Positions 2,694 to 59,517 of a DNA stretch of 64,000 nucleotides are shown in pieces. The notes beneath the pieces are model-generated. The model was given only the letters and a program-made list of their open reading frames with translations, was not told the DNA's origin and ran no database searches. The translations under genes were made by a program, and so were the position numbers. Numbering within the stretch: position 1 is the stretch's first letter; each line of letters begins with the position of its first letter. The stretch comes from Patescibacteria group bacterium (GTDB taxonomy: Bacteria > Patescibacteriota > UBA1384 > XYA2-FULL-43-10 > 1-14-0-10-43-13), in assembly GCA_041666325.1 (NCBI GenBank), contig JBAYHC010000001.1:265708-329707 (forward strand). Direction: 5' to 3'.

Positions 2694-2704
2694 TAAATAA
2701 AACA

Positions 2705-43198: not shown

Positions 43199-43396
43199 AA
43201 AGTTTTATCGTATTATTAGATTTAGATATTCACAAAATCAATGCCCACAGGGACCCTTCTGGTCGTAACAAGCTGGTGCTTTCAGCTTATTACAAGATAT
43301 AAATAGTCGTAGCATCAGTGCGCAAAAGGAGTGAAACGACTATTACAAGATACAGATAGTCACAAAATCAATGCGTAACAAGCTGGTGCTTTCAGC
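43199..43396. repeat. Intergenic cluster of the dispersed repeat family (two copies each of TCACAAAATCAATGC, GTAACAAGCTGGTGCTTTCAGCTTA hairpin unit and ATTACAAGATA-core)
   Basis: Exact and near-exact direct repeats read from sequence; same motifs recur at 43964-44256, 47285-47355, 53640-53670 and (reverse orientation) 58512-58677. Confidence 0.6.
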
Positions 43397-43963
43397 TTAC
43401 TTTGCCAGATGCTTCAGGCACCATCTAATTTTCTCTTCAGCAGTGTCAACCTCAACCGGAACCCTGGCCAAGGCCTTTGATATCTCAAACTTCTTGTACC
43501 CTAGACCAACAAGCGCTCCAACAACATCAGAGGCCTCACCGGCACTGCTAATTATTCCCGCTACATCAATATCAGACATTTTTGATTTAAGTTCCAGGAT
43601 AATTTTTGCAGCGACCTTCTGACCAATGCCTGGGATCCCGGTAAAGAAGGAAACATCCTCGGATGATATCGCCTGTAAAATTCTCTCCGGATCGCCAATT
43701 CCGATTATCGCCATTGCCGCCTTTGGTCCAACACCATTAACAGTAATGAGTTGCTCAAATATCTCCATTTCAGTAAATGTAGGGAAGCCGTAAAGATCGT
43801 CCGTGTCCTCACGTATGTGCTCGTATACAAAAAAAAATTGCTCTGATCCGACTAAATAGTCAGAGTCCTTGACTAAGCTTAGACGATAACCAACACCGCT
43901 GGTTTCAATAATAGCATAGCCAGGGCGAGAAACGATTATTTTTCCTTTGATGTAACCAATCAT
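43397..43963 (-). CDS. ruvA: Holliday junction DNA helicase RuvA
   Basis: MIGYIKGKI...HhH motifs GIPGIGQKVAAKIILEL. Confidence 0.85.
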   Translation of the reverse strand: MIGYIKGKIIVSRPGYAIIETSGVGYRLSLVKDSDYLVGSEQFFFVYEHIREDTDDLYGFPTFTEMEIFEQLITVNGVGPKAAMAIIGIGDPERILQAISSEDVSFFTGIPGIGQKVAAKIILELKSKMSDIDVAGIISSAGEASDVVGALVGLGYKKFEISKALARVPVEVDTAEEKIRWCLKHLAK

Positions 43964-44256
43964 ATTGTGATGAACAAATCCAAAGTTAAACGGGCCTTTG
44001 ACCGATTAATCGTATTATAACAAGGTATTATAGTAATTTTCCAGTGCGTAAAAGGAGTGAAGCGACTATTGCAAGATATAAAGCAATGAAGCTTAGATAC
44101 AAAGCGCAACAAAGCCAAAGGCTTTATAACAAGATACGAGGCAATGTGACAACGATACACTGCCCACAGGGACCATTTGGGTCGTTAAAAAAACGAAGTG
44201 ACTATACATTAAATAGGCTCGTTTGCTAGAGCCAAAGATTTTCCAGGCAAGTTATC
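43964..44256. repeat. Second locus of the dispersed repeat family (CAGTGCGTAAAAGGAGTGAAGCGACTATTGCAAGATATAAAGCAATGAAG ... CTTTATAACAAGATACGAGGCAATGTGACAACGATACAC ... GCCCACAGGGACC)
   Basis: Sequence identity to copies in 43199-43396 and 47285-47355. Confidence 0.55.
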
Positions 44257-44904
44257 TTACCGACCCAGGCTGAGCCCGTCTATCTTAAAAAAATCTGATT
44301 GCAAAGCGTTGATTATCCCGCGAACGGCCAGGTCCTCCTTGTCGTCACCAACGAATATTGGATTTCCGTTGGGCAGTGCTCTGATTTTTTCATCAATCTT
44401 CTCCAGTGCGAACACCTTATCTCTCAAGAAAGGCTCGGCGCCACCAACGATTATTGCAGGCATGCCGCTTTCGAAGATCATACTATAATCTACGGCGCCA
44501 TCACCCGCTACCACTCCAGAAAAATCCAACTGCTTCTGTAAATAGAGTGCGGCGAGATTTTTATCGGAAAGTTGCGCGTGATCTGTGTCTTGCAGATATC
44601 TGCCATTCAACTGCCTTACATAAATTTCACTCCCCAAAGAAACAGCCATGACATCGAATTGCGGTAACGACTCGATGCCCTCCACCATTTCCCTCCTTCT
44701 GCCAGTGATGTACACAAGACCCCAACACAAATACTGAAGATAATTATATAACCGCCACATGTCATCGACTGTCTCTGGGCTATAGAATGTGTTGTCAATA
44801 TCCGTCAGAAGCACGGGAAAAGCTCTTTTTTGTTTCTTGTGCCCCTGACTCTTGTGCCAAATCACACTCTCCCTGTAAGCCTTAGGAATCATGAACTTTG
44901 TCAT
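44257..44904 (-). CDS. HAD-IIB family phosphatase, sucrose-phosphate-phosphatase-like
   Basis: LLTDIDNTF (DxDxT), GDGAVDYSM...IIVGGAEP motifs. Confidence 0.7.
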   Translation of the reverse strand: MTKFMIPKAYRESVIWHKSQGHKKQKRAFPVLLTDIDNTFYSPETVDDMWRLYNYLQYLCWGLVYITGRRREMVEGIESLPQFDVMAVSLGSEIYVRQLNGRYLQDTDHAQLSDKNLAALYLQKQLDFSGVVAGDGAVDYSMIFESGMPAIIVGGAEPFLRDKVFALEKIDEKIRALPNGNPIFVGDDKEDLAVRGIINALQSDFFKIDGLSLGR

Positions 44905-45947
44905 CCCTGCTCTCCCAGCGCCATCTGGTAGGCCCCAAGATAGCCTGAGGCCATCGATTCAGTAGAAAACCTCATGGATACATCATCGCGACATGTCCTG
45001 CGCTCAAGTCCTTCCACATCATACATTTTTCGTAGCATCTCTTCTGGTGTCGTACAAACATATCCCGTCTCTCCATTCCGTATCACCTCGGGAGTGGATC
45101 CTCTTTTGTATGCAATAACGGGAGTACCACAAGCAAGTGCTTCGATGAAGTAGAGGCCAAAAGGCTCCTCCCACTGAATAGGAGCCAACAATGCCTTAGC
45201 GCCTCCTAACAATTTGTTCTTCACGCCATGATCAACCTCACCTATAAATTCAATCTGATTGCCGTCTATAAGCGGTGCGACTTCCCGCTCAAAGAATTTC
45301 GTATCCGCTTGGTCTACCTTTGCTGCCATAATAAGTTTCACTCCAGCTTGTTTTGCCAAATTAATAGCCTGTACTGGACCTTTCTCGGGTGACATTCGAC
45401 CCAGAAATACATAATAATCTCCAGATCTCCCCTGATAATCGAACTCCTCAACCCTTGTGCCATTATAAACGTTGGCGACGTAATTGAGTTGGGGCAAGGG
45501 CTTGCGCTGACTCTGACTAATACTTATGTACGATGCGTCGGCATACGCCCTATACAAAGACTGCTGGTGCGCCACTCCGAGAGGGCCGTGCAATGTATTA
45601 ACTACTGGCGCATCGATGAGCTTTAAGAATGGCAACAACCGCCACCCCAAGTGGTTATGAACAATGTCGAATTTCTCATCTGTCAGATATTCCAGCGCTC
45701 TTCCCAAACCGATGAATTTATTAGTATCACGCACCTTCGGGTCAACATTTAAAGGATCGGAGCGCAAAGATCTCGAAAAAACCGGTTTAATCTTTGCGCT
45801 GGTGATTGAATCACCGGTCGCTACAAGAGTGACGTCATGTCCTCTTCTTACTAACTCTTCTGTCAAAAAATGAACAACTCTCTCAGTTCCTCCATACTTT
45901 TTTGGCGGGACAGGCTCCTCAAAAGGGGCCAGCATCGCAATTTTCAT
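44901..45947 (-). CDS. GT4 family glycosyltransferase
   Basis: EPFGLYFIEALACGTPVIA C-terminal GT-B motif. Confidence 0.8.
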   Translation of the reverse strand: MKIAMLAPFEEPVPPKKYGGTERVVHFLTEELVRRGHDVTLVATGDSITSAKIKPVFSRSLRSDPLNVDPKVRDTNKFIGLGRALEYLTDEKFDIVHNHLGWRLLPFLKLIDAPVVNTLHGPLGVAHQQSLYRAYADASYISISQSQRKPLPQLNYVANVYNGTRVEEFDYQGRSGDYYVFLGRMSPEKGPVQAINLAKQAGVKLIMAAKVDQADTKFFEREVAPLIDGNQIEFIGEVDHGVKNKLLGGAKALLAPIQWEEPFGLYFIEALACGTPVIAYKRGSTPEVIRNGETGYVCTTPEEMLRKMYDVEGLERRTCRDDVSMRFSTESMASGYLGAYQMALGEQG

Positions 45948-47191
45948 AGCATCTCCTTCCTGTTGGTAAATTCCTCAAAGAACTCGGCATACTCACGAGA
46001 GATCTTTTCCCAGTTAAAGTGACGATTAATTCGAGACAGACATGCAAGCGAATAGTGTCCTCTGGCCTTGGCAAGAACTAGTTTTAGCTTCTCTGCAAGA
46101 TCGATGTGATTTCGAGGCTCCGCCAGATGCCCAGTAACACCGTCCCTAATAGTGAACTGAAGACCGCCGGTACGAGAAGCAACCACCGGCGTACCGCAAG
46201 CCATAGATTCTAGCGGAACAATACCAAAAGGCTCGTAATACGAGGGGACCACAACCACATCTGCAGCATTGTAGTAGCGAAAGAGTTGCTTTTGACTAAC
46301 CGGACCGACATAGACTACTTGCCCCTGTATGTTCAGCTCGGAAATTAGTTTTGATTGCCTTTCAAGCTCTTCCGCTTCGAGCATTTTTGCTGACTGGTTT
46401 GTGCTTCCGCCAACGACATATAGTTTACTGCTGGGATATTCTTTTTGCGCCAGAGCGAATGAACGCAATAGCGTTCCAATTCCCTTGCGCCATTCGAGCC
46501 GACCGACATAGAGAATATTTTTCTCGTCAGGCGACATCAATAACTTCGATTTAGGAGAAAAGGTAGTTGGTCGAAAAATCCTCGTATCAACTCCGATTGG
46601 TATGACCTTAATCTTCTCCTCGGCGACCTTAAAAATATCCATTATTGTAGCTTTTTCGACCGGGCTCGTTCCAATAATCCTGTCAACACTGCCAGTGATT
46701 GCAGCTTCTGATTTTAACCTCTCGGCAAACAAATCTGGGTTTGGGATTTGGTCAAACCGCTGAAATGTTTGAAGTCTAACCTGCCCGATCGAATGGAAAA
46801 CAAAAAAGTGGGGAAGATTAAGCCTTTTGCTTATCTCCATTCCCACTAAACCCGAGAGCCAGTAGTTAGAGTGAACTAAATCGTATTGTGTTTCTTCCTG
46901 CTCAATTCTTCTGAGTATATTCGCCGTGAATTCGGGAAGAAGAGATATAAACTCTTCCTTTGGCACATACCGCCTTGGTCCTGCTTTAACCCTTATCACG
47001 CGTATGTGATGATTAACCTTGGCTACTTCGATTTTATTAAGTCGATCCCACCTGGTAAAGATATCTACGAATATCCCAAGCCGCCCCAAGTACCGCGCCA
47101 GATAGTAGACGTAGATATTTTGCCCTCCAGCCTCTTTTGAGCCGATCTCCGCCAGCGGGTCGGAGTGATCGGAGATTAGTAATATTCTCAT
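45944..47191 (-). CDS. GT4 glycosyltransferase of the MshA / sucrose-phosphate-synthase-like subgroup
   Basis: MRILLISDHSDPLAEIGSKEAGGQNIYVYYLARYL (GGQNVYV hallmark), EPFGIVPLESMACGTPVVA; start set to MRILL (no SD; upstream TTG alternative). Confidence 0.75.
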   Translation of the reverse strand: MRILLISDHSDPLAEIGSKEAGGQNIYVYYLARYLGRLGIFVDIFTRWDRLNKIEVAKVNHHIRVIRVKAGPRRYVPKEEFISLLPEFTANILRRIEQEETQYDLVHSNYWLSGLVGMEISKRLNLPHFFVFHSIGQVRLQTFQRFDQIPNPDLFAERLKSEAAITGSVDRIIGTSPVEKATIMDIFKVAEEKIKVIPIGVDTRIFRPTTFSPKSKLLMSPDEKNILYVGRLEWRKGIGTLLRSFALAQKEYPSSKLYVVGGSTNQSAKMLEAEELERQSKLISELNIQGQVVYVGPVSQKQLFRYYNAADVVVVPSYYEPFGIVPLESMACGTPVVASRTGGLQFTIRDGVTGHLAEPRNHIDLAEKLKLVLAKARGHYSLACLSRINRHFNWEKISREYAEFFEEFTNRKEML

Positions 47192-47284
47192 GGTGTGCCG
47201 ACTGCGGCACACCACCTTAACACAGCGGCAAGAACGTGGCAATCAGATTTTTGTCACACACAAAAATTACCCAAATTAGAACTA

Positions 47285-47355
47285 TTTATTACAAGACACA
47301 AAGCAATGAAGTACGATACGGGTCGTAAAAGGAGTGAAACGACTATTACAAAACT
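47285..47355. repeat. Third locus of dispersed repeat family (TTATTACAAGACACAAAGCAATGAAG...GTCGTAAAAGGAGTGAAACGACTATTACAAAAC)
   Basis: Near-identity of the AAAAGGAGTGAA(A/G)CGACTATT(A/G)CAAGATA core to the other loci. Confidence 0.5.
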
Positions 47356-47360
47356 AGTAT

Positions 47361-48314
47361 TTAGCCGACAAGCGATGAATATGATTGACCGGCTCGCCTT
47401 AGATATTCTATCCATTGGTGCTTCTCAGCAGATAGAACCTTGTGCCAACCATTGCCGACAACGAGTCGTATCAGGCTTGCCCGAAAACACTCCTCGTCAT
47501 CCTTGGTTTTTATCCCCAGGCCAACCAGTTCCTTCTGCCAAACTGGATAGCGATAAAGATAGAGCCAAAGCTGGGCGATATCCATCATAAAATTGTCGAA
47601 TGTAAACCACTCGAAATCAGTCAGAACAAGAGATGAATCTTCTTTGATAATAATATTTGTTGGAACCAAATCACCGGTAATCACGCTCAATCTCTCACGA
47701 CTAAAGTATGTCTCAGAATAGGAATTATAGAAATCTAATTGTGGCTGGAGAGAAAAACCGATTTCTGATTCAATCATTTTGATATCATAAGTAGACAGAT
47801 CTCTGGGAAATTGAGGTCGCAAAAACTCATTAGAAAAATCAACACCCTTTGCCTCCGGATCATGCTCTCGAATCGAATCCAAGAAGCTTATTGTATCACC
47901 CAAAATCTGAACGTAGTCCCCAAGAAACTTATCCTTAATCAGACTATATTCGTAAACAAGGGGGCGTCCGGGCGTTTGGGAATATTGCGCGAGAGTCTCT
48001 CCAGGACAGTAGCTTCGAAGGACCCAGAAAAAATCACCAGACTCCCCCGAGCCAATTACTGCTGGAATTTTGGAAAACAACTCATTTCCAGAGGGGAAAA
48101 GCTTTTTCATTGCGTCAAAAGAGGCTATTTCCCTACGAAATTTGTAAAGAGTCCATGTGTCGGATTTGGCGGTAATCTTTAGGAATACTTTCTCTGATCC
48201 AATCAAGCCCTGGGCGAGAAACCGGCCGCCAGTCTGGTCATCATCAAGAAATACCTTTTCAATAATCAGGCTAAGCTTGTCGCATATATCTTGATAACCG
48301 GTTTTTATTGGCAT
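47361..48314 (-). CDS. APH-like (aminoglycoside/choline/sugar kinase fold) phosphotransferase
   Basis: ITGDLVPTNIII (HGD-type catalytic loop), LTDFEW (DFG-equivalent). Confidence 0.6.
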   Translation of the reverse strand: MPIKTGYQDICDKLSLIIEKVFLDDDQTGGRFLAQGLIGSEKVFLKITAKSDTWTLYKFRREIASFDAMKKLFPSGNELFSKIPAVIGSGESGDFFWVLRSYCPGETLAQYSQTPGRPLVYEYSLIKDKFLGDYVQILGDTISFLDSIREHDPEAKGVDFSNEFLRPQFPRDLSTYDIKMIESEIGFSLQPQLDFYNSYSETYFSRERLSVITGDLVPTNIIIKEDSSLVLTDFEWFTFDNFMMDIAQLWLYLYRYPVWQKELVGLGIKTKDDEECFRASLIRLVVGNGWHKVLSAEKHQWIEYLRRAGQSYSSLVG

Positions 48315-48328
48315 AATAAATTAAGTGA

Positions 48329-50521
48329 TTAGCTTTTAAACGATAGATAAGCAAGGAGATAAGTCACGATTGATTCAGCACCCTGATTCTGATTTACTCC
48401 ACGCCGCGTTACAGCGTCGAATACTCCGCGAGAAACATTGTCGTACACAATTGCGCCATTGATGTTGTTGCCAAAATACCACCCCATCCACTCGTGCGCT
48501 CTCTCCTTGTATTTCTTTTCGCTGGTCAAACGATAAAACTCATTATACATCAAGGCCATATCTCCAGCCTCGATTGATTGCTGGTCAAATATCGCTTTGC
48601 GCTGATTTTGGACATACCAACCATCCTGACCAATCGGAAGGGGGATCCCTTTGTAATGGCAGTTTTCACGCAAGAAATTGGCCGAGTCAATCGCAATCTT
48701 TAAATATTCTTTGTTGCCAATAATACCATAAGCCTTAGCAAGAGCATAAGGCACAATTCCGTTGGCGTATGTTAACGCCCCCTCAAACCATCGCCATTTC
48801 CCACTATCAGAGTTTTCTTTATACCTCTCAACTAATATGCCGGACAAGCGTTCGACTTCCTTTTTATTGCCAAGATAGCAATAACCGAGCAAATTATAAG
48901 CAATTGATTTTACAAAACCACATGTAATGTTTTTCTCATAAATTGGCAGAAGTTTTTTTGCCTCGCTTGTTATGACGGGATCTATTCCAGCAACAGAGGC
49001 GACATAAGACAGCGCCCAGAATGCTCTGGCTACTGAATCATCAGACGCAACAGAATCAACAAAATTTCTGTCCTTATCAAGAAAGTTGTGTATCAGACCA
49101 TTTGAATCGACAGCCTTGTGGAGGTAATTAAGATAGATCTTAGCTAGGACTTCCGCCTCTTCATTTCTAGTGCTTGATAGAAAATTGGCCGTCACGATCA
49201 GTGCTCGGGCCTGATCATCGAGACTATAACCAAAATCATAATTTGGCGCAGTGAGAACACAGTGCTGAACGATGCCGAACTCATCAGTTAGGTTTCTCAG
49301 ATATTTCAATGATGGCTTGTCTGCAAAATTTGGCATACGCTGCTTCCAGCGGTCCTTTTTTATAAAAAGATTAGACTCTAAAACTTTTAAATACTCAAGA
49401 CCAACCTTCGGCCAAATCATATCGCGGGCAAACTGGTAGCCCTTCAGGCACATCTTCTCGAAATTCGGTGACGATAGCAGTTTGTTTATCTCAGACGATA
49501 TTAGCTCCGGCTCCGGCAGAGTGATAATTCCCCTCCCCTTGGACAGAACCTCATTAGCATAGTTTGTTGGGGACGAAATTGCAGCACAGCCACAACCCAA
49601 AGCGTAGGAAAGAGTGCCGGAAAAAGCCTGCTTAAAATCAACCTGCGGAGCAAGATATATATCTGTTGCCTTTAGATAGTCGACAAGCTCACTATAGTCC
49701 AGATACTTGTTCACAAATTTTACATTGTCGCTAACGCCCTTCGTCTTGGCAAGATCAAGTAAACTGTTCCTGTAACTCTCACCCTCTCTCTTGAGGATAT
49801 TTGGATGCGTCGCACCGATTATCAGATAAGTGGTCTTGGGATATTGAGCTACAACCTTAGGCAGAGCTTCGATCGCATTTTCAATTCCTTTACCGCGATT
49901 AATTAAACCAAAAGTTGAGAGAACGGTTTGACCCTTCAGCCCAAGTCCTGCTTTTGCCTTTTCGCGCTCATCGAAGCGAACATTAGGTACGCCATGAGGA
50001 ACGATTTGAATTTTCTTGGAATCAACCCTGAACGTCTCGGTTAAAATCTTCTTGGCACTGTGGGTCATGACCACAACTGAGTCAGATAAATCCAGTATTC
50101 TCTGGGTTAACTTATAGCGATGCTCGCTATGCTCGCGCAGGACAGAGTGCAAGCTGGTAACAACCGGCTTGTTGAGGTTCTCCAATAAGCCTAAAACAAA
50201 CTTGCCGTCTTCACCACCATATATGCCGTACTCATGCTGAATGCTCACAACCTCAATTGAGCTATTGTTGAGAAATTCTGCTGCTTTGACGTATGATTGC
50301 TCGTTGTATTGATCGATCTCAAAAATTATCCTGCTAGAATATTTATATTTGCCCTTCTCGTCGCTTACGGCCACAATCTTCGTTTGGTTTCTAACATACA
50401 TTTCATCAAAAATCCTAACGAATGACTTGGTAAATGTGGCAATCCCACACTCGCGTGGAGGATAAGTTGAGATAAAGGCAATTTTAATCTTTGATTTGTC
50501 CATCGAGCTCCGTCCTTTCAA
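48329..50521 (-). CDS. Fusion protein: N-terminal GT4 glycosyltransferase + C-terminal ~330-aa alpha-helical (alpha/alpha)6-barrel glycoside-hydrolase-like domain
   Basis: N-terminal GT-B pattern (KIAFISTYPPRECGIATF...); C-terminal domain assignment is inference from helix-rich W/Y/G pattern. Confidence 0.6.
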   Translation of the reverse strand: MKGRSSMDKSKIKIAFISTYPPRECGIATFTKSFVRIFDEMYVRNQTKIVAVSDEKGKYKYSSRIIFEIDQYNEQSYVKAAEFLNNSSIEVVSIQHEYGIYGGEDGKFVLGLLENLNKPVVTSLHSVLREHSEHRYKLTQRILDLSDSVVVMTHSAKKILTETFRVDSKKIQIVPHGVPNVRFDEREKAKAGLGLKGQTVLSTFGLINRGKGIENAIEALPKVVAQYPKTTYLIIGATHPNILKREGESYRNSLLDLAKTKGVSDNVKFVNKYLDYSELVDYLKATDIYLAPQVDFKQAFSGTLSYALGCGCAAISSPTNYANEVLSKGRGIITLPEPELISSEINKLLSSPNFEKMCLKGYQFARDMIWPKVGLEYLKVLESNLFIKKDRWKQRMPNFADKPSLKYLRNLTDEFGIVQHCVLTAPNYDFGYSLDDQARALIVTANFLSSTRNEEAEVLAKIYLNYLHKAVDSNGLIHNFLDKDRNFVDSVASDDSVARAFWALSYVASVAGIDPVITSEAKKLLPIYEKNITCGFVKSIAYNLLGYCYLGNKKEVERLSGILVERYKENSDSGKWRWFEGALTYANGIVPYALAKAYGIIGNKEYLKIAIDSANFLRENCHYKGIPLPIGQDGWYVQNQRKAIFDQQSIEAGDMALMYNEFYRLTSEKKYKERAHEWMGWYFGNNINGAIVYDNVSRGVFDAVTRRGVNQNQGAESIVTYLLAYLSFKS

Positions 50522-50626
50522 AAAAACAGCTTATGCCGGTTACCACACAATTTATTCCCAAGCATAAGCAAAATTATATGAACATACCATAACCGCAAAA
50601 GCGCCATTTGTCAATGCTAAAAGACG

Positions 50627-51574
50627 CTAAATATTGCCCTTAGCAGCCACCATTCCGATCGAATGATAAACCTCATCTCTGTCCGAAACGGCCAATCCAA
50701 TACCCTGATCACCTGCACCATAATATGTTAAAAATTTATCGTCCACTTCGATTAAGCCTGTTGGAAAAACCACGCTATCTACCAACCCTCTCTGCTCATA
50801 TATCCGCTCTGGCTGAAAGATAGGCTCATCGCTACGAGCAATTACGTGGCTCGGGTTAACTAAGTCTAGCAACATCCAACCTGTGCGATATGTTGGTCTA
50901 GTATCTACGCCATGATATACAAGAAACCAACCAAACGGAGTCCTTATAGGTGGTGCACCTGCCCCAATCTTAACACTATCCCAGAGGTCCTTGCGAGGCT
51001 TAGCGATAGAAACATGACCAGACCAATCGCGAAGATTATCAGAAAAGGAGATCCAAATATCAGGATAGACTCGATGCAACAGAACATACTGTCCTGCCAC
51101 TTTTTCTGGAAACAATACCGCGTCCTTTGAGTCAAATTCCGGCAAAACAACACCGAAATCAACGAAACTCTGAAAATCAGTTGTCTCTGCTAAAGCCACT
51201 CTCGTTCTCCAAGGGGGCTCAGATAATTCACCGATCAATTCTTTGACCGGGTACACAGAGGCAAGGGTGTATGTTATAAGAAACCTGTCCTCAATTCTGA
51301 CAACGCGAGGATCCTCGCATCCCAGGCGACCATCGATGTTACCGGGGGTCGTCTCAAAAACAGGCAGTTCTGAACGTTCTCTGAAGTCAATTCCATCCGG
51401 TGAGCAAGCATAGCCAAAACGAGAGATACGATCAATGCCCATTGCCCTGTATAGCATATGTATCTTGCCTGCATCACAAACTACTCCCGGGTTGAAGACT
51501 GACTGTGCCTCCCACCACTTCTCTGCCCGCGGCGCCAGAATGAGGCTATCGGTAGATCGGTTAAGTTTAAACAT
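50627..51574 (-). CDS. GH130 family glycoside phosphorylase/hydrolase (beta-mannoside phosphorylase-like, DUF377)
   Basis: WEAQSVFNPGVV...GKIHMLYRA...GCEDPRVV...FLVYHGV motifs. Confidence 0.75.
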   Translation of the reverse strand: MFKLNRSTDSLILAPRAEKWWEAQSVFNPGVVCDAGKIHMLYRAMGIDRISRFGYACSPDGIDFRERSELPVFETTPGNIDGRLGCEDPRVVRIEDRFLITYTLASVYPVKELIGELSEPPWRTRVALAETTDFQSFVDFGVVLPEFDSKDAVLFPEKVAGQYVLLHRVYPDIWISFSDNLRDWSGHVSIAKPRKDLWDSVKIGAGAPPIRTPFGWFLVYHGVDTRPTYRTGWMLLDLVNPSHVIARSDEPIFQPERIYEQRGLVDSVVFPTGLIEVDDKFLTYYGAGDQGIGLAVSDRDEVYHSIGMVAAKGNI

Positions 51575-51583
51575 CTTGGTAAT

Positions 51584-52588
51584 TTAACGCGGTTCGCCCG
51601 CCAGAGCAACACCTATCTCGTCAAGATTGAGAGTCTGATTTTTGAGATCAAGTAATCTCGTTAGCATTTGATAAAAATAGTTAAAGCCTTCTTTGACAAC
51701 GCTCATTTCATAAGGGTTCTTCTCTGGGTTCTCCATAGAGTAAGTCCAGTGCTGAAGCTCTCTTGATATTTGGTAAACCAACATTGGCAATAGTGTTTGG
51801 ACAAGCTGGTCCGAGGCAGAAGTACTTAAACCTGCCTTGAATCTCTCGGCTAATAATGTTTGCGCCTCCGGATAACGCCAGGACGTAGCCCAAATATGAA
51901 CAAAATCCTCAACACAACTCCCCAAATGGGCAGATTCCCAATCAGTCACCAAAACAGCCTTATCAGCGAATACTATGTTTCCAAAGTGAAAATCACCATG
52001 AACAAGTCCTTCGCCCGCCATCAAGTATTTGGTAGGCCCAGAGATTATTTCACTTACCCTGGAAAGAAAGTTCGGAATATATTTGTGAAGTCGAGCAGCG
52101 CACTCTTCCATCGGCTTTAAATAATAAAATGGTGAAATTTCTTTTAATGACAACGGTGCACGGAATGAGTCCAGCTCGAAGATAACATTGATGGCATTGA
52201 TACACCGATCTCGCAGATTGGCTTGATTGTCCAAGATGAGATGAACATCACCAACAACATCTCCCTCGACATATTCCCTGAGGTACCAGGAAAAATCACC
52301 AGTTTCACAGTCAACAATTTTCGGAACGACGAATGATCTGAAAGAGATTTCTCCAAGCTGTTGATTTAGCCCAATCTCCTTCTTGAACGGCTGAGACCGA
52401 TTGTCCCCCTCAAAAACCAAGGCCTTAAAAAAGTATCGTTTGCCGTCTTTTCCGTCACAGATTGTTTTAAAAAACTTTTTGCCCGAGATCTCAGCATCGC
52501 TAAGATATTGGTCGGGAGCCAGACCAGGAACCAACTGCTTCTCTGCCAGAAGACCACTAATTTTTTTATCAATTTCTGGTATCAACAT
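51584..52588 (-). CDS. APH-like phosphotransferase (second paralog)
   Basis: LVHGDFHFGNIVF, LVTDWES motifs. Confidence 0.6.
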   Translation of the reverse strand: MLIPEIDKKISGLLAEKQLVPGLAPDQYLSDAEISGKKFFKTICDGKDGKRYFFKALVFEGDNRSQPFKKEIGLNQQLGEISFRSFVVPKIVDCETGDFSWYLREYVEGDVVGDVHLILDNQANLRDRCINAINVIFELDSFRAPLSLKEISPFYYLKPMEECAARLHKYIPNFLSRVSEIISGPTKYLMAGEGLVHGDFHFGNIVFADKAVLVTDWESAHLGSCVEDFVHIWATSWRYPEAQTLLAERFKAGLSTSASDQLVQTLLPMLVYQISRELQHWTYSMENPEKNPYEMSVVKEGFNYFYQMLTRLLDLKNQTLNLDEIGVALAGEPR

Positions 52589-52597
52589 TTATTCACC

Positions 52598-53620
52598 CTA
52601 TTTCTTTAAAACAAATTTGTCTGCACTTTCGGCCTTCTTCTCCTGTAAATATCCCGCAGCAGCCTCTGGTGCCATGACATTGATTATTACATCACTGCCA
52701 AGCTCGAAGCCACCATAATTAGCAATCCTTGGCACAATTTCAATATGCCAATGATAGGAGGCGGAATCATCTAGAATCGGTGGCAAGGTATGAACATAAA
52801 AATTTAGAGGCGGATTTCCAAGAGTCTCATCCAACATGTGAAAAACGTTTTGCGATATCTCAGCCAGAGCAGACATGCTTACCCTCGACGTTAACTCGAA
52901 CTGACTTTCGTGGCGCTTGGGTATTATCCAAGTTTCAAATGGAAAACGCGATGCAAAAAAGTTTATGGCAATATAATGATCATTCTGCCATATTATTCGA
53001 ATTTTTTCCCTCATTTCATGCTTAACAATATCACAATAAACACAAGCACCGTTTATTCCGTAGTACCTATCTGACCCATCCATCTCTCGCCCAACCGTAT
53101 TGGCCACTATTCCGGACGCAAATATCTGAGCATGAGGATGCTCAATTGATGCGCCTGCTTCAGCGCCATGATTGTAGATTGGCATAATAGACACGACGTT
53201 CTCGTGCTTTTTCATCCACAGATACCTTTCCCTGATTGTCTCGAACAATTCAGCGAGAACGACTCTTGGAAACTTCATCAGTGAAAGATCGTGATCCTTC
53301 ACAATCACAACCTCATGATCTCCAGTCGAAGGACGTGCACGATAGAAGCCCTCCTCTGGGTAAAAACTCCTCGTGCTATTCGGAGTTTTGCCCTCCTGAA
53401 AAGCAGGAAAACGGTTCTCAATTACATAAACATTTTCAGTGGACGATCCCCGCACCCTGTCGTTGTCCTTATATTTGTCCGAACCCTCACAAAATGGACA
53501 TTCACATTTGGGCACTACCTTTTGACTTTTGGGAATCAAAAAATCTTGGGGCCTCTTTGCTCTTTCGGGAGCAACAACAACCCAGTCTCCGGTAATAATA
53601 TTTTGGCGAAGTTGCGGCAT
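52598..53620 (-). CDS. Galactose-1-phosphate uridylyltransferase-type HIT enzyme (GalT family; could be ADP/UDP-sugar phosphorylase)
   Basis: CPFCEG zinc site, HPHAQIFA (HxHxQ) active site; start set to MPQLRQNI. Confidence 0.7.
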   Translation of the reverse strand: MPQLRQNIITGDWVVVAPERAKRPQDFLIPKSQKVVPKCECPFCEGSDKYKDNDRVRGSSTENVYVIENRFPAFQEGKTPNSTRSFYPEEGFYRARPSTGDHEVVIVKDHDLSLMKFPRVVLAELFETIRERYLWMKKHENVVSIMPIYNHGAEAGASIEHPHAQIFASGIVANTVGREMDGSDRYYGINGACVYCDIVKHEMREKIRIIWQNDHYIAINFFASRFPFETWIIPKRHESQFELTSRVSMSALAEISQNVFHMLDETLGNPPLNFYVHTLPPILDDSASYHWHIEIVPRIANYGGFELGSDVIINVMAPEAAAGYLQEKKAESADKFVLKK

Positions 53621-53689
53621 CAAACCCTCCAAAAGGTATCGTTTTTTATTACAAGATATTATAGACAAGAACTCGGTGCGCAACAAAGG

Positions 53690-53787
53690 GTTAATACCCC
53701 ACAGCTTGCTGCGGAACCCTGGGCCTGGGGCTTCCTTTAACCACGAGCAGCCCAGGATCGAGCGGTGCCACGGGGTATTGTACCCAT
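53690..53787 (-). ncRNA. Candidate structured GC-rich RNA element (~100 nt; outer helix GGGUACAAUACCCC / GGGGUAUUAACCC closing internal CCUGGGC/GCCCAGG and GCUGC/GCAGC helices); possibly a small SRP (4.5S)-like RNA or a ruvC 3-prime structure
   Basis: Local GC >60% in AT-rich intergenic DNA; nested inverted repeats read by eye; contains AGGAAGC reminiscent of SRP helix 8 but no clean GGAA tetraloop. Confidence 0.25.
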
Positions 53788-53797
53788 TATAAGAGTA

Positions 53798-54310: not shown

Positions 54311-54392
54311 AATCCCTCTGCAGCATAAGCAAATAACTGATCAGACTTGTTAGTCATTGGGTGCGAAAATTTTTGTCGCCCACCTCAGACTA

Positions 54393-55121
54393 CTATGCCA
54401 TATTAGTGTATACATTAGTCACATCCTCGAGCTCTTCGATTTTTTCAATTAAGTTTGAAACTGAGTCTGCTTTCTCGCTGGGAAGCAGAACAGGAGTTGT
54501 TGCAACTTGAATAATCTCTGCGGAATCAACAATAACACCCTTTTCTTCAAGGGCGCTTTTTACTGAGTGAAGGCTACCCGGTGCTGTCCGAACGACATAG
54601 AATCCATCCTCAGAATCAAAATCATCGGCACCCGAATCAATAATCACCATCTCAAGTTCTTCCCCTTTAGCATTGCTCTTGCTCTCGCTGAGTGCTATCT
54701 CTCCAACTGTCCGAAACTGATACAAAACACTGCCACTCCCAGCCATGGATCCACTATACTTGTTTAGTATTGCCTTTATATCAGAAACAGTGCGATTGCG
54801 ATTATCTGTCAACGTTTCTATGAGCATCGCAACCCCCGATGGGCCGTATGCCTCATAAGTTACCTCTTCAATCTTTACGCTGTCGCCGCCCTCGCCTAAT
54901 CCGCGCTTAATAGCGCGTTCTATGTTTTCCTTGGGCATGCTAACTGCGCGCGCGTTATCCATTGCCATGCGAAGAGAGGGATTAAAGTTAGGATCGCCAC
55001 TTTTACCGTCTCTGGTAGCAATCGTTATGAGTCCGGCCAGCTTGGTGAAGATTTTCGCCCTCTTCGAGTCAATTGCAGCTTTTTTCCTTTTGGTTGTTGC
55101 CCATTTGCTATGTCCTGACAT
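54393..55121 (-). CDS. yebC: YebC/PmpR family DNA-binding transcriptional regulator
   Basis: MSGHSKWATTKRKKAAIDSKRAKIFTKL canonical N-terminus. Confidence 0.85.
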   Translation of the reverse strand: MSGHSKWATTKRKKAAIDSKRAKIFTKLAGLITIATRDGKSGDPNFNPSLRMAMDNARAVSMPKENIERAIKRGLGEGGDSVKIEEVTYEAYGPSGVAMLIETLTDNRNRTVSDIKAILNKYSGSMAGSGSVLYQFRTVGEIALSESKSNAKGEELEMVIIDSGADDFDSEDGFYVVRTAPGSLHSVKSALEEKGVIVDSAEIIQVATTPVLLPSEKADSVSNLIEKIEELEDVTNVYTNMA

Positions 55122-55279
55122 TCTGCTCCTTTCTGGTACGATTCAACATACTTCTCGTCTCTCTAGTTCATTTTAAGCTGAAACAGGCTCGCTTGGCAAG
55201 AGAAGAGACTTGCTCTTGAACTTTATGGCCAGATTAGAGATAATCCTTCCAGTATTAACAAACCTTAGATGGGGAAAAG

Positions 55280-56032
55280 ATGAATAATATATTTGAGGAA
55301 AGTCTAAAAACACTCGAGGGCAAAACTGCTGTAATAACTGGTGGCACCAGTGGGATAGGGCTCTCAACCGCCCTCAATCTCGCCTCTCTGGGTTGTAAAA
55401 CACTTGTCTTCAGTCGAGACAAGGACAAAGTATCTGCAGCACTAAAAAGAGTGGGCAACCCGAAAAACATTATTGGAGCCAGTGCAGATGTGACAAAGTA
55501 TGATGAAGTCAAAGATGTTTTTGATCAGGCAGAGCGAGAATTAGGCAGAATTGACATACTTATAAACAATGCGGCTATCCCGGCAGGAAATGTTGTCGAC
55601 AGTGAATATCCGGACTGGCAAAACGCAATCAACACGATGCTAATCGGATATATGTCATGTGCCAGAGAAGCAGCTCTTCGAATGAGAACACAAGGAAAGG
55701 GACATATTGTCAACGTGGGATCACTCAGTGCTGAAGTATTTGACCATAATAGTGATATTTATGTTGCAGCCAAATCAGGAGTTAGAGGATTCACCTTCTC
55801 GCTGCGTAAAAAATTAACGAAAGACAACATCAAGGTAAGTCTAGTTGAACCAGGCCTGGTTGCTACAAACCTCCACACATTAACCCAAGAAGAAAAAGAA
55901 AAGTTAGAAACATCCGGAAACATTCTTCAGCCCAATGATATTGCGAGAAGTATCATCTTTATCCTAACTCAATCTTGGTATAGTGACATTACTATGCTTC
56001 AGATCAGGCCACACGGCCAGAGCACCCTTTAG
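55280..56032 (+). CDS. Short-chain dehydrogenase/reductase (SDR) family oxidoreductase
   Basis: TAVITGGTSGIGLSTA (TGxxxGxG), NNAA, YVAAKSG (YxxxK) motifs. Confidence 0.8.
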   Translation: MNNIFEESLKTLEGKTAVITGGTSGIGLSTALNLASLGCKTLVFSRDKDKVSAALKRVGNPKNIIGASADVTKYDEVKDVFDQAERELGRIDILINNAAIPAGNVVDSEYPDWQNAINTMLIGYMSCAREAALRMRTQGKGHIVNVGSLSAEVFDHNSDIYVAAKSGVRGFTFSLRKKLTKDNIKVSLVEPGLVATNLHTLTQEEKEKLETSGNILQPNDIARSIIFILTQSWYSDITMLQIRPHGQSTL

Positions 56033-56033
56033 T

Positions 56034-56909
56034 TCATTTGTAGAGCACAGTGCCGTTCTTGTCCAGCCTAAACATAACAGTTCCTTCTCTGTCAGTCCGA
56101 AGTACAGTGCTTCCCTTTCTTTGTGCTAAATCCAAGGATTCTTGATGCGGGTGTCCATACTTATTGTCATCCCCAACTGATATTATGGAATATTTCGGTA
56201 ATACTTTTTCATACATTGCCTCATCTGCTCCATTGCTAGAGCCGTGATGTGAGACCTTCAGTATATCGGAAGCCAAACTTGATGATTCTCCTCCGGGATA
56301 ATCATCATAATGCGCCAACATCTCATCTTGCTCCTCTCTCTCTGCGTCCCCTAGAAATATTGCACACCGTTCAAAATAACAGAAACGCGTAATTTCTGAC
56401 GCATTATTCAGGTTCTCTGCGCTCTGCTCCTTAAATTTATCGCCGGGCCAAAGAAATTGAAGTTGACCATTCTCAAATGGGACAATCTCATCGAACACAG
56501 CAGGAACGAAGAGTTCTATTTTTTTGTCCCTGACCTTCCGCAGAAACTCAAGATACGCATCGCTCGTGTGTAAAACTCCAGGAGAATAAACGGCACCAAC
56601 ATCAAAGCGATCAAAAACCTTGTTTAATCCAATCAGGTGATCGGCATGGGGGTGGGTCAGAACAATAACCTCTATCTTTCTGTCAGAGAGCGGCATAGCA
56701 GCACCAAGATCAGCCATAATGCTGTCGTCAGGACCACCATCTATCAATATTTGAAAGTCTTTTTTTGATATCAAGGCAGCGTCTCCCTGACCCACATCAA
56801 AAAAATGCAAACTGACAGCGTCGCTAGCAGGGCCCTTAGCAATTTCTGTCCAAAGAAAGAAAAGAGTAGAAATCAGAACGGTGAAAATAATTTTGGTCGA
56901 GCTTTTCAT
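56034..56909 (-). CDS. ComEC C-terminal metallo-beta-lactamase domain protein (separate ORF)
   Basis: FFDVGQGDAALI...VLTHPHADH motifs; ATGA overlap with upstream ComEC membrane part. Confidence 0.75.
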   Translation of the reverse strand: MKSSTKIIFTVLISTLFFLWTEIAKGPASDAVSLHFFDVGQGDAALISKKDFQILIDGGPDDSIMADLGAAMPLSDRKIEVIVLTHPHADHLIGLNKVFDRFDVGAVYSPGVLHTSDAYLEFLRKVRDKKIELFVPAVFDEIVPFENGQLQFLWPGDKFKEQSAENLNNASEITRFCYFERCAIFLGDAEREEQDEMLAHYDDYPGGESSSLASDILKVSHHGSSNGADEAMYEKVLPKYSIISVGDDNKYGHPHQESLDLAQRKGSTVLRTDREGTVMFRLDKNGTVLYK

Positions 56910-58432
56910 CTTTTTTGCAAATGAGTCCGAAAATTACTTCTCTTCAACATGTATAGCACTATGACAAACAGCGCCAAAACAATCATGCCAAAAATGACTA
57001 TACTACCCCCTCCGATCTCGACTGCTGCGAATGGAACCTTGGAAAAAAGTTGTACCGTCTTAAGTATGTACGTTATTGGTGCGTATGCCAGCAGAGCGAA
57101 AGTAATTCCGAGAGGTTTCCATATTAATCCAAAAAAGATAATAAGTGCGATGAAGAGCATTGAAATTGGTACCACCCACAATACAGCAATATTAGCCACA
57201 GGCGCGATGAGCGAAATTTGACCGAAATTGTAAGCAATGATCGGCAAAACCGCCACCTGAGCACCGAGTGTGTCAGCTAACGGAGCAGAAATAAATTGGG
57301 GAATTCGCTTTAATCTCCCCCTCTCAAAGAAGGTTTTGATTACTGGCGAGACATAGACTAGTCCAGTAAATGCCAAGAAAGAGAGCTGAAAACCGATGTC
57401 ATAGAAGAGCAAGAAAGGGTTCACTAATAGCATAGATACTGCCGCCAATAAAGTCAGATTTGCCTGATGAGGCTGGCGGCCAATATTTCGCCCAAAAACA
57501 ATCAATAGAGAAAATATTGCTGCTCTCACAATACTTGGCGCCGCCCCCGTCATAACTACAAACAACAACACAACGGCACCGCTAGCAAGAAACACGATCT
57601 TTCGGCCAAACCACAACAATAACAACTCCGACAGGGCGACAACTATGATTGTGACATTGAACCCACTCAGGGCCACAATATGAGTTAGTCCGGTCTTGGC
57701 AAGATCGTCCCTGAAGACTTGGGGGATCGACCTCTTCTGCCCCAACAGTATGCCTGAAGCTAGCGACGAGTGTGGTTCCGGTAAGGAAAAATTAAGAACA
57801 TAGTCCATGCGGTCAATAATTCGATACAACCCTCGCCAGACCCGCTGCTTCAATCCGCGTGCTCGGTGAGCGCCAAGAACTGCTGGCCTCTCCATTGTGC
57901 CATAGACCGGATATTTCTTTAGATATCTTCCGTAATCAAAATCGCTATACTTCTCTGGCTTGCTGATCTGACCCCGAAGCGATAAATCGTCACCATACTG
58001 AATATCATGCTTCCCAGGCAGACTGACTAGCAACATCCTGCCACGGTATCCCTCTGATAGTCCATTTTCTATGTTATCAACAGAGACAATTATCTTCTGC
58101 AAGCCCTCATCTCTTTGGGGCTTTGAGACTACCCTTGCCAGTATTGTCGTTTCGGTACCGTACGCCCAAGTAGCACTCGTTTTTCGCTCAAAATCAGCCA
58201 GATAAAAGACGCCCAGTAAAAAGAACAAGACGGAGACTGTGACAAGTATAAGTACCCCATTCCTGAGCAAAACATTGGCAAAGAGAACAACCAAAATCCA
58301 GCAGAATATATTCAAAAACAAGATTCGAGAAAACTGAAAGTTGTCTCCTAATGCCGAAGCAACGACAATTCCACTCAAAAAGAAAAGGGCATACAACATA
58401 AATTGAAGTGCTTTTGGCATAGATTTTGTCAT
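56906..58432 (-). CDS. comEC: ComEC/Rec2 DNA-uptake channel, membrane (DUF4131 + competence) part
   Basis: LTHIVALSGFNVTII core motif, ~10 TM. Confidence 0.8.
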   Translation of the reverse strand: MTKSMPKALQFMLYALFFLSGIVVASALGDNFQFSRILFLNIFCWILVVLFANVLLRNGVLILVTVSVLFFLLGVFYLADFERKTSATWAYGTETTILARVVSKPQRDEGLQKIIVSVDNIENGLSEGYRGRMLLVSLPGKHDIQYGDDLSLRGQISKPEKYSDFDYGRYLKKYPVYGTMERPAVLGAHRARGLKQRVWRGLYRIIDRMDYVLNFSLPEPHSSLASGILLGQKRSIPQVFRDDLAKTGLTHIVALSGFNVTIIVVALSELLLLWFGRKIVFLASGAVVLLFVVMTGAAPSIVRAAIFSLLIVFGRNIGRQPHQANLTLLAAVSMLLVNPFLLFYDIGFQLSFLAFTGLVYVSPVIKTFFERGRLKRIPQFISAPLADTLGAQVAVLPIIAYNFGQISLIAPVANIAVLWVVPISMLFIALIIFFGLIWKPLGITFALLAYAPITYILKTVQLFSKVPFAAVEIGGGSIVIFGMIVLALFVIVLYMLKRSNFRTHLQKR

Positions 58433-58511
58433 GTACCACCGGCCATTGCCTTTAATTTGAAGTTAGGGTAATATTTTTCTGAAATCAGATAAATGCTAAC
58501 TATAAGCAAAG

Positions 58512-58677
58512 CCTTTAACGCCGTGTATCAAGTCACATTACTTTATATCTTGTTATAGTCGACCAGGGGCCTTCTTTAACGCACTGTATCAAGCTGCATT
58601 ACTTTATATCTTGTTATAGTCACTTCGTTCCTTTAACGCCGTGTATCAAGTCACATTACTTTATATCTTGTTATAGG
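58512..58677. repeat. Three tandem ~59-nt copies of CCTTTAACGCCGTGTATCAAGTCACATTACTTTATATCTTGTTATAG(TC); reverse-complement relatives of the ATAACAAGATATAAAG dispersed repeat; last copy ends 10 nt before grpE ATG
   Basis: Read directly. Confidence 0.65.
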
Positions 58678-58687
58678 ATAGTAAAAA

Positions 58688-59188: not shown

Positions 59189-59517
59189 TAAAATTCCCCT
59201 ATTGCATAGTAGGCCTGACGCCATGTCGTTGCTGTCATTCCTGCTAACAAAAAGAAGTGGACGGGTAAAACTAAGTACCGGCTGCTTTGTTTTGATGTTT
59301 CTACCAACACATGTGCAACCACGTCACCGCTTGCCACGCTTGATCAAGAAAAGACAGCGATTGTGGTCGCAGCCGAGATTTTTAGCTACAATCCAACCCG
59401 GACGATCACATAGAGGCAAAAATTTCATTGAAAAACCAGAAGACCAGAATTGTTTTAGCTAATATTCAGCGCATCAATGTTCACGCACCGAATAATAACC
59501 TGAAGCGAAGACGGGGG

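Follow-up and report, generated by a model that had tools for sequence, protein, structure and literature searches.

Eleven units of a short intergenic repeat occupy five spacers between 43.2 and 58.7 kb of the window, the 64-kb stretch of Patescibacteria DNA analysed here, and a degenerate copy is found at a sixth locus at 9.3 kb. The unit count covers ~70 kb of the 687-kb contig, and the 5.5 kb by which the contig was extended leftward of the window contains no further copy. The spacers lie between ruvA and ruvB, between a HAD-phosphatase gene and ruvA, between a kinase and a GT4 gene, between ruvC and GalT, and between the divergently oriented comEC and grpE.

Array v (43199..43399, minus strand) fills the 198-nt ruvA-to-ruvB spacer. 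Its first unit, v0 (43337-43399; covariance-model (CM) match 43337-43383), begins at the ruvA stop codon and the hairpin module TAAGCTGAAAGCACCAGCTTGTTAC, and is followed by v1 (43284-43344; CM match 43284-43330) and v2 (43205-43291). The hairpin module recurs in v2, together with 20 nt of inserted GC-rich sequence and a degraded core, TCTAATAATAC, directly before the ruvB ATG (43198). A 13-bp hairpin (-15.8 kcal/mol, z -5.7) spans v1 and v2. Array u (43964..44256, minus strand), which also has CM matches, lies in the 293-nt HAD-phosphatase-to-ruvA spacer and consists of u1 (44122-44207), containing the 20-nt insert ACCCAAATGGTCCCTGTGGG, u2 (44063-44128) and u3 (44013-44070). The terminal core of this array, TGTTATAAT (44022-44014), is a perfect extended -10 positioned 50 nt 5' of the ruvA ATG, and the promoter scan reads it as TGGAAA-18-TATAAT with TG.

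The kinase-to-GT4 spacer holds array w (47283..47350, minus strand; CM match 47283-47333, E 7.5e-12), formed by a partial unit, w0, with the core TTTTGTAATAG and the module GTCGTTTCACTCCTTTTACG, and a full unit, w1, that terminates in CTTGTAATAA. A single unit (53643..53688, minus strand; CM E 1.3e-7) in the ruvC-to-GalT spacer runs from the arm CTTTGTTGCGC through TGTCTATAAT to the core CTTGTAATAA, ~27 nt 5' of the GalT GGAGG-ATG (ATG 53620, the start being that of the ENA gene calls). Array g (58501..58677, plus strand) occupies the divergent comEC/grpE spacer with three units that have CM matches, g0 (58501-58561), g1 (58554-58622) and g2 (58615-58679), and ends 10 nt before the grpE ATG (58688). 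Tandem Repeats Finder delimits it as 58512-58676 with a period of 61 and 2.8 copies; in the repeat search, the start-to-start spacing of its units is 61 and 57 nt. Meanwhile, the diverged sixth copy (9314-9373, plus strand; nhmmer E 2.8e-5) is located at the 5' end of an LTD/OB-fold gene, so assigned by Pfam. Its CM E-value is 1.1e-10, for a copy that was itself in the CM training set. The annotated start codon of the gene (ATG 9334) sits inside the copy, within nTGTATC, and the orthologues are without the 17-residue N-terminal extension. The copy retains the TGTATC and CATTGC blocks and has lost the -10.

Allowing one mismatch at most, the core TATWRCAAGATA has 10 matches where 1.3 are expected, a number reached in none of 100 shuffles, and all 10 fall within 43288-58675. 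The 21-mer AAAAGGAGTGAARCGACTATT has three exact matches against 0.01 expected, one in each of three spacers. The claim of the earlier note that repeats recur at these sites above chance is therefore borne out, as is its count of 'five or more loci', the diverged sixth copy lying outside the region that it described. Its several dispersed motifs do recur, but they are not separate, all being parts of one 51-61-nt head-to-tail unit. Two that it treated as dispersed families, the 'hairpin' and GCCCACAGGGACC, have only two copies each and are modules within units; both copies of the hairpin motif are in the ruvA-ruvB spacer. All copies do lie upstream of genes, as stated, but four of the five arrays are situated between co-directional genes and are thus as much downstream as upstream. 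That the ruvA, ruvB and GT4 arrays are not assembly artefacts follows from their presence, at 99.98% identity, in a Logan contig from a different sequencing run (L002). The assemblies of the same strain are identical except for one SNP.

Units are 51-61 nt long and stand head-to-tail, in a single orientation, within every array. They share a common plan, with an arm (CTTTWRCG), ~27 nt of conserved sequence (TGTATC..CATTGC..TTATAT) and then a core (CTTGYWATAG). The strong copies are all intergenic, and at six of six loci, four on the minus and two on the plus strand, the units are co-oriented with the downstream gene (one-sided p = 0.016 if the loci are independent). As the GC skew has no sustained change of sign across the window, this orientation follows transcription rather than replication. 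Unit types are common to different arrays more than they are within one array: u2 is 73-80% identical to the grpE units and 52% identical to its neighbour u3, which in turn is 80% identical to v1. Units g0 and g2 are 100% identical over 47 nt. Judged by this identity and by the 21-mers in three spacers, the units are related by descent and not by convergence. Mini-ORFs in the arrays yield junk-like peptides only, and an in-frame 'MYxxxIALY' mini-ORF was discarded, as it is accounted for by DNA identity and its start codon is missing in several units.

No member of the family occurs in the orthologous spacers of five relatives (L025, L026, L030, L031 and L033), which keep synteny and have spacers of 0-148 nt with no unit. 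Their HAD-ruvA spacer measures 0-11 nt, compared with 293 nt here, and L025 and L026 have no repeat families of their own at these sites. In the closest relative, L030, whose GrpE is 68% identical, the comEC/grpE spacer is 68 nt; it is identical to the window across nearly all of the 30 nt spanning the grpE start codon, and the ~172-nt array has no counterpart there. A presence/absence difference between orthologous sites, which the earlier note had named as a sign of mobility, is thus clear for grpE, the array being cleanly absent between well-conserved flanks. Among the GTDB species genomes there were nine single matches in unrelated taxa, approximately the number estimated for chance, and the JGI metagenomes gave 11 single unrelated matches, several within a coding repeat. 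Two unit patterns had no match in IMG/VR, and blastn found none in PLSDB plasmids or INPHARED phages. Six-frame translations of the arrays, aimed at spurious ORFs called over other arrays, returned nothing at E<=10 among 5.8 billion predicted proteins. The literature searched describes neither repeats like these nor promoter motifs for Patescibacteria. As far as these genomes and collections reach, the repeat family is lineage-specific and absent from relatives.

Each unit reads as an imperfect palindrome in which the arm (CTTTWRCG) can pair with the core (CTTGYWATAG). In this register 79% of cells are paired, and sliding the partners lowers the figure to 32-50%. Covariation scores 0.227, where shuffles give 0.149 and one in 500 of them attains the observed value, for a structure that was derived from one sequence of the family. 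The compensatory pairs, UA/AU (columns 9-47) and AU/GC (columns 10-46), represent only two or three independent events. The minimum-free-energy folds of g0, g2, u2, the LTD copy and the GalT unit all show the long hairpin, or at least the outer stem of it, whereas u3, v0, v1 and w1 do not adopt it. The stem has no unique register, since pairing of the arm with the upstream core is just as good. The unit hairpins are weak (-1.7 to -13.6 kcal/mol) with mostly non-significant single-unit z-scores, whole arrays are no stabler than shuffles, and RNAalifold predicts no consensus structure for the units. The best-folding unit is g2 (-10.4 kcal/mol, z -2.6), in which UCCU is paired with AGGA 10 nt before the grpE ATG. 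It is the only unit with such Shine-Dalgarno-like sequestration, and its UCCU-AGGA pairing would be the basis of any likeness to fourU/ROSE thermometers, weak hairpins in which a U-rich strand is paired to the Shine-Dalgarno sequence of a heat-shock gene. Terminator-like U-tracts are absent from the units, and neither ruvA nor ruvB has a Shine-Dalgarno sequence.

The core also matches the usual extended -10 promoter of this genome (TGnTAnnnT); the other intergenic promoters of the window follow the pattern TGnTAnAAT. The -10-like boxes in the units are TGTTATAGT and TGTAATAGT, twice each, TGTTATAAT and TGCAATAGT, and three of the boxes are flagged by a consensus promoter scan. The extended -10 consensus (TG at -15/-14 and, one base further on, a TATAAT-like hexamer that includes A(-11) and T(-7)) is present in six of the 11 units. 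The remaining five are without T(-7) (TATAAA, AATAAG, AATAAA twice and TATAGG), and the conservation of every unit therefore cannot be put down to promoter function. Conservation is highest in the blocks TGTATC and CATTGC, which flank the -35 position and do not occupy it. The core (CTTGTTATAAT/CTTGTTATAGT) resembles extended -10 sigma-70/sigma-A promoters in fitting both the consensus and the promoter type of the window, whereas the units as a whole differ from them in being conserved ~40 nt past any promoter element, in often lacking T(-7) and in having no conserved -35. The promoter activity of the units is predicted from this match to the consensus. The sequence before grpE reads TGATAAATT in L030 and CAGATAAATGC in the window, an alignment that suggests decay of the ancestral grpE promoter in the latter.

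The reading that we favour, with somewhat less than even confidence, is that of a lineage-specific mosaic family of 51-61-nt units that were inserted into the spacers of a single Patescibacteria genome, were exchanged between them and act in cis on transcription. Units would have been inserted and exchanged among spacers, and the core, being an extended -10 (TGnTAnnnT), would give at least the gene-proximal ones promoter activity. The arrays may have broken up the ruvC-sugar-cluster-ruvA-ruvB operon, compact in the ancestor, so that its parts are driven separately, and array g may have taken over from the decayed original promoter of grpE. The weak AT-rich hairpins, located in leaders or inter-cistronic RNA, could modulate stability or translation, for example through the UCCU-AGGA pairing of g2. 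Overall, the units probably supply promoters and weak hairpins, as far as can be told from their sequence. A bolder version, which we regard as a long shot, is a self-propagating ~55-nt promoter/hairpin cassette of candidate-phyla-radiation bacteria, oriented with transcription, that inserts at -10-like TATAG sites, multiplies and rewires operons. If so, the ruvC-sugar-ruvA-ruvB operon would have been split and the grpE promoter replaced by it, and repair, chaperone and sugar genes might share a temperature- or stress-sensitive leader.

Patescibacteria have very small, tightly packed genomes and, to our knowledge, almost nothing is known of their transcription control. Here, four or five spacers have recently been enlarged by 50-290 nt through the repeat family. 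If functional, it would offer a concrete case of a reduced genome whose operons were rewired by repeats, and a way into promoter mapping in an uncultured lineage; if functionless, it would be one more lineage-specific intergenic repeat.

Among known systems, compared here by their described features, REP/BIME or NIME mosaic repeats come closest; the family is of an ordinary bacterial type and not a new system. REP/BIME elements are typical of enterobacteria and pseudomonads, whose genomes carry them in copy numbers of tens to hundreds and encode a cognate RAYT (Y1) transposase. They are, as the units described here appear to be, short imperfect palindromes. Both are confined to spacers, often cluster as mosaic arrays with variable linkers and are lineage-specific; both are found inside operons or at their ends, where they would be transcribed together with the neighbouring genes. 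The present units, however, are longer (a palindrome of ~50 nt), AT-rich and equipped with a -10-like box, and are strictly head-to-tail in every array where REP/BIME alternate in orientation. No sequence similarity between the two is known, and no RAYT transposase was seen among the annotated ORFs of the window. NIMEs are neisserial RS units separated by dRS3 repeats, and the pneumococcal BOX has the form boxA-boxB(n)-boxC. With both, the family shares a short conserved element alternating with a few interchangeable variable modules, spacer arrays of 2-4 units and module types common to several loci. It differs in its unrelated sequence, in a conserved element that is an arm/core pair rather than a 20-nt inverted repeat, in not being tied to phage integration sites or surface-protein genes, and in its host, a Patescibacteria genome of ~0.7 Mb or more. 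Correia elements and other promoter-delivering MITEs are similar with regard to presence or absence at orthologous sites, insertion just 5' of genes and -10-like sequences able to create promoters. These differ from the ~55-nt tandem units in their size (100-400 nt), their MITE-type terminal inverted repeats and their parent IS element, and no clear TA or other target duplication is present here.

The strongest competitor, though in our view rather unlikely, takes the units for palindromic repeats of a REP- or MITE-like kind, selfish or neutral and without a cis role, spread by a transposase encoded at another locus or by recombination and surviving only in harmless sites, namely spacers, with the -10 likeness a by-product of AT-richness. 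The presence/absence difference at the orthologous grpE site, the near-identical copies, the mosaic exchange of unit types between arrays and the imperfect palindromes all agree with it, as do the unconserved T(-7) and the relatives' want of a conserved motif before the same genes. However, strict co-orientation with transcription at six of six loci on both strands is unexpected of a neutral element, and equally so of strand-specific single-stranded-DNA transposition, which would track replication. The best -10 boxes, moreover, are in gene-proximal units (TGTTATAAT for ruvA). The ends of the grpE array, TAAGCAAAGCC... and ...CTTGTTATAGG, are not inverted repeats, its junctions show only TATAAG/TATAGG, the unit boundary itself, and no transposase is found among the annotated genes near the arrays in the 64-kb window. 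Without terminal inverted repeats, a clear target-site duplication or a transposase, the family is not a strict MITE. Of the identities that the earlier note had offered, a MITE-like or dispersed repeat nevertheless comes closest to the evidence: descent, sharing between arrays and the clean absence at grpE speak for it, and the missing terminal inverted repeats against it.

Less probable still, and improbable overall, is an array of operators for one DNA-binding regulator, defining a lineage-specific stress regulon of ruvA, ruvB, grpE, two sugar-cluster operons and the LTD/OB gene. A stress, repair and chaperone theme is plausible among the downstream genes. The conserved blocks TGTATC-N6/7-CATTGC-N-TTATATCTTG lie outside the canonical -35/-10 hexamers and persist in the diverged LTD copy, where the -10 is lost. 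Yet the 92-100% identity over 21-47 nt includes non-core positions, a sign of recent duplication more than of constraint from protein binding, and the A-U/U-A and A-U/G-C swaps between arms fit base pairing better than half-site recognition. The motif is absent before the orthologous genes of relatives, the clade's conserved heat-shock-type operator is a different palindrome that is found at dnaK and not at grpE, and no regulator gene is linked to the arrays. No known operator matches: the CIRCE/HrcA operator TTAGCACTC-N9-GAGTGCTAA, which would stand before grpE/dnaK, was rejected for want of a match at up to three mismatches, and DnaA boxes fare no better, as described below. In a comparison by eye, neither LexA, CtsR, HAIR and IHF sites nor the CTTG/ATA nick site of pC194/phiX174-type replicons appear to fit the units.

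A role played chiefly at the RNA level appears slightly more doubtful again: transcribed hairpins in leaders or between cistrons would serve as stability elements, attenuators or, at grpE, a fourU-like thermometer. This would account for the arm/core complementarity maintained by compensatory changes, for the fold of g2 near the grpE ATG and for the placement of the grpE array between the ancestral -10 position and the start codon; since each arm can pair with either neighbouring core, alternative structures would be permitted. Against it stand the lack of a consensus fold, arrays no stabler than shuffles, the different folds of u3, v0, v1 and w1, the absence of terminator-type U-tracts, and Shine-Dalgarno sequestration confined to one unit, with ruvA and ruvB having no such sequence to hide. 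Rfam gave no match in 43-59 kb even at E<=5, and across the whole window the gathering score is reached by tRNAs alone.

Small-RNA genes, a DnaA-box or origin-type cluster and a degenerate CRISPR array are together very improbable, their likeness to the arrays (a 57-61-nt period with a conserved and a variable part, and TTATnACAAG) being superficial. The small-RNA family suggested by the earlier note finds neither an Rfam match nor an RNAalifold consensus structure, and the core that it called loosely DnaA-box-like fails on numbers, with 14 boxes in the window against 14.8 expected and none in the arrays. An oriC with TTATCCACA-like boxes was likewise discarded, the GC skew having no turning point and dnaA and dnaN not being nearby. 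In the CRISPR comparison, it is the supposed repeats that vary and the supposed spacers that recur between arrays, and cas genes are absent nearby.

In the Logan assembly, the contig covering grpE begins inside the grpE array, and the repeats of this array offer an explanation for the breaks of short-read assemblies at grpE.

Read along the direction of transcription, all of the motifs picked out in the earlier note reduce to a single intergenic unit of 51-61 nt that is repeated head to tail. Each unit starts with [T/A]ATA[G/A], followed by a variable module of 10-20 nt, the arm CTTTWRCG(C) and an optional 20-nt GC-rich insert, and then by nnTGTATC, 6-7 nt of any sequence, CATTGC, TTATAT and the core CTTGYWATAG, which is also the start of the following unit. 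There are a few types of variable module, and they are shared among loci: GTCGYTTCACTCC is found in the arrays of the ruvA-ruvB (v), HAD-ruvA (u) and kinase-GT4 (w) spacers, GTCACTTCGTT in array u and in the comEC/grpE array (g), and a short hairpin type, either GCTGAAAGCACCAGC or AGCCTTTGGCT, in v and u. The 'hairpin' and 'GCCCACAGGGACC' motifs described earlier are present, though in only two copies each and as modules within units. The ruvA-ruvB and comEC/grpE spacers hold three units apiece, the HAD-ruvA spacer three full units plus a terminal core, the kinase-GT4 spacer about 1.5 units, and the ruvC-GalT spacer and the LTD/OB gene one each. Unit u2 has 73-80% identity with the grpE units and 52% with its neighbor u3, which in turn is 80% identical to v1. 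With such mosaic identities, the arrays are not simple local tandem duplications.

The repeat family is real by several measures. The core TATWRCAAGATA, allowing up to one mismatch, is found at 10 sites (1.3 expected), all within 43288-58675, and the 21-mer AAAAGGAGTGAARCGACTATT at three (0.01 expected). Tandem Repeats Finder and a repeat search put the grpE array at 58512-58676 and its copies 61 and 57 nt apart. A ten-unit profile recovers its own ten units and one diverged copy at 9314-9373; an unfiltered covariance-model search of the 64 kb adds unit u1 and nothing further. The arrays before ruvA, ruvB and GT4 are also present in an independent assembly of the same strain from another sequencing run (L002), which differs from the window by one base in 4.9 kb. 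This base, 43260 (T here, G there), is the sole difference from L002 and from a second assembly, L001, over the 4.9 kb and 20.5 kb compared; it sits in the 20-nt insert of v2, within a small hairpin whose GACCC/GGGTC stem is perfect with G. A short-read Logan contig carrying grpE (window 58647-60060) starts inside unit g2, indicating that the tandem array breaks assembly.

The window lies in a 687-kb metagenome contig (ENA ERZ27249449 k141_115123), of which the window plus 5.5 kb was read. RuvA and GrpE searches place it in the Patescibacteria near Berkelbacteria-like MAGs, the closest RuvA being only 55% and the closest GrpE 68% identical. The minus strand carries comEC, a metallo-beta-lactamase-fold gene, yebC and ruvC, then a sugar cluster, then ruvA, ruvB and queH; on the plus strand are an SDR gene between the metallo-beta-lactamase gene and yebC, and grpE, dnaK, an unknown ORF and a dnaJ-like gene, divergent from comEC. 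The eight genes of the sugar cluster encode a GalT-like protein, two APH-type kinases, a GH130 enzyme, three GT4 glycosyltransferases and a HAD phosphatase. Relatives keep this gene order, including the sugar cluster between ruvC and ruvA, which is a conserved, unusual interruption of the ruv operon in the clade. The content of the cluster (44257-53686) differs among the relatives' loci L025, L026, L031 and L033, and the GalT-like gene is always first after ruvC in these and in the window. Between comEC and grpE, one relative carries a gene of the Trp-repressor family (PF01371; L031 4428-4847), absent from the window and from L030, the locus of the closest relative.

Five relatives (L025, L026, L030, L031/L032 and L033/L034) have no unit in their orthologous spacers, which are compact. 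In relatives, ruvA is separated from the preceding gene by 0-11 nt, compared with 293 nt in the window, and the ruvA-ruvB spacer measures 101 nt in L025 versus 198 nt here. In L030 (SRR22387874), the comEC/grpE spacer is 68 nt long and aligns to the window on both sides, with identity over nearly all 30 nt spanning the grpE start codon. The ~172-nt grpE array is wholly missing between ...TAACTA and ATAGTAAAAAATG, the presence/absence difference at an orthologous site that would mark mobility. This close comparison covers the comEC/grpE locus, and for that one locus it is decisive. Searches of GTDB species genomes, JGI metagenomes, IMG/VR, plasmids and phages gave chance-level or no matches to the unit, and a six-frame peptide search of 5.8 billion proteins gave none. 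The family is well delimited and private to one lineage; it entered the spacers and was exchanged among them. Most likely it is a lineage-specific mosaic intergenic repeat, resembling the general REP/BIME, NIME or BOX kind, a known kind of bacterial repeat whose function here we can only infer. It is the first such family documentable in this group.

Every unit runs in the direction of transcription of the downstream gene, at four loci on the minus strand and at two on the plus strand, and all lie in spacers apart from the copy at the LTD gene, where the unit overlaps the annotated start. GC skew shows no sustained sign change across the window, so orientation tracks transcription, not replication. 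One rival reading takes the units as a functionless selfish palindromic element; their orientation speaks against a strand-specific single-stranded-DNA transposition mechanism and favors a transcription-linked role or selection. At the LTD/OB-fold secreted protein (9334-9384, plus strand), the ATG start lies inside the repeat unit, and the protein has a 17-residue N-terminal extension, MYQRHIALYFATKGEAE, that its orthologues in L025 and L026 lack. Since there is no alternative canonical start before the signal peptide, the start codon seems to have come with the repeat.

The unit core resembles an extended -10 box of the TGnTAnAAT kind. Such boxes, with weak -35 elements, occur in other spacers of the window, for example before tRNA genes. 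Among the units, TGTTATAGT occurs in two copies before grpE, TGTTATAAT lies 50 nt before ruvA, and TGTAATAGT and TGCAATAGT are found in others; a promoter consensus scan flags three unit -10 sites. The L030 grpE spacer has the extended -10 TGATAAATT where the window reads CAGATAAATGC, which would fit a replacement of the ancestral -10 box by those of the array. The repeat may now act in cis on transcription: gene-proximal units, at least, would supply promoters, driving grpE and splitting a once compact operon into parts with promoters of their own, and leaders would gain weak hairpins from the units. As judged from sequence, this is a likely case of repeat-driven promoter gain. T(-7) is missing in five units, and the best-conserved blocks, TGTATC and CATTGC, flank the -35 position without occupying it; promoter function is therefore not the constraint that conserves all units. 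An operator array for a regulator is a second rival to promoter supply.

A third rival is a role at the RNA level alone. The arm and the core ~30 nt downstream of it are complementary, and the sequence that separates them is partly self-complementary. In the ten-unit alignment, 79% of cells are paired in a 17-pair hairpin versus 32-50% after sliding the partners by 1-3 columns. Covariation scores 0.227 versus 0.149 in shuffles (reached by 1 of 500), with compensatory pairs in columns 9-47 (UA five times, AU three times) and 10-46 (AU six times, GC and GU twice each), although these amount to two or three independent events and the tested structure derives from one alignment member. In g0, g2, u2, the LTD copy and the GalT unit, minimum-free-energy folding yields this long hairpin, or its outer stem at the least. 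Single-unit hairpins have weak energies and mostly non-significant z-scores, whole arrays are no more stable than shuffles, and RNAalifold predicts no consensus structure for the units. Together with the lack of any Rfam hit at E<=5 in 43-59 kb, this RNAalifold result contradicts the small-RNA family suggested previously. The arm pairs equally well with the upstream core, strongly so for v1>v2 (13 bp, -15.8 kcal/mol, z -5.7) and u1>u2 (-9.8 kcal/mol, z -3.6). Arm/core complementarity is maintained; it may serve in RNA or in DNA, or may be a mere trace of unit origin. For the RNA-level role, a predicted thermometer-like hairpin in g2 pairs UCCU with AGGA before grpE (-10.4 kcal/mol, z -2.6). 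The 'DnaA-box-like' reading of the core in the earlier note is contradicted by DnaA-box and GC-skew analysis of the window, and a CRISPR reading is likewise contradicted.

Other elements were seen in the window. A perfect 20-nt palindrome overlaps the dnaK promoter (59518-59545, plus strand; TTGACA-NN-ATGTAAAGT-NN-ACTTTACAT), its one occurrence in the window. It recurs at L030 2408-2435, L031 5568-5595 and L033 6696-6723, base-for-base identical in all four lineages, whose GrpE proteins are only 60-68% identical. The palindrome is not CIRCE and probably serves as operator for the heat-shock repressor of the clade. A GC-rich hairpin of ~100 nt (53690-53790, minus strand; -49.5 kcal/mol, z -2.4) immediately follows the ruvC stop codon, ahead of the GalT unit. 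It matches no Rfam family at E<=5, neither the window nor any other locus examined holds a second copy, and the ruvC-GalT spacers of relatives lack it. An extended 11-bp hairpin, GGUGUGCCG/CGGCACACC (47190-47215, minus strand), holds the AU of the GT4 start codon (47191) and part of a Shine-Dalgarno-like AAGGUGG. This hairpin could be a translational control element; the 61 nt from 47180 to 47240 have a folding energy of -22.6 kcal/mol (z -2.2). A KGG/LEA_5-like small stress-protein gene family (1750-4210) comprises several copies, direct and inverted, that are 70-90% identical and contain internal coding repeats of 60 nt. Finally, a very large gene (27050-30120, minus strand) includes 17 or more coding repeats in tandem, each 150-156 nt (about 50-52 residues) long, with 60-100% identity.
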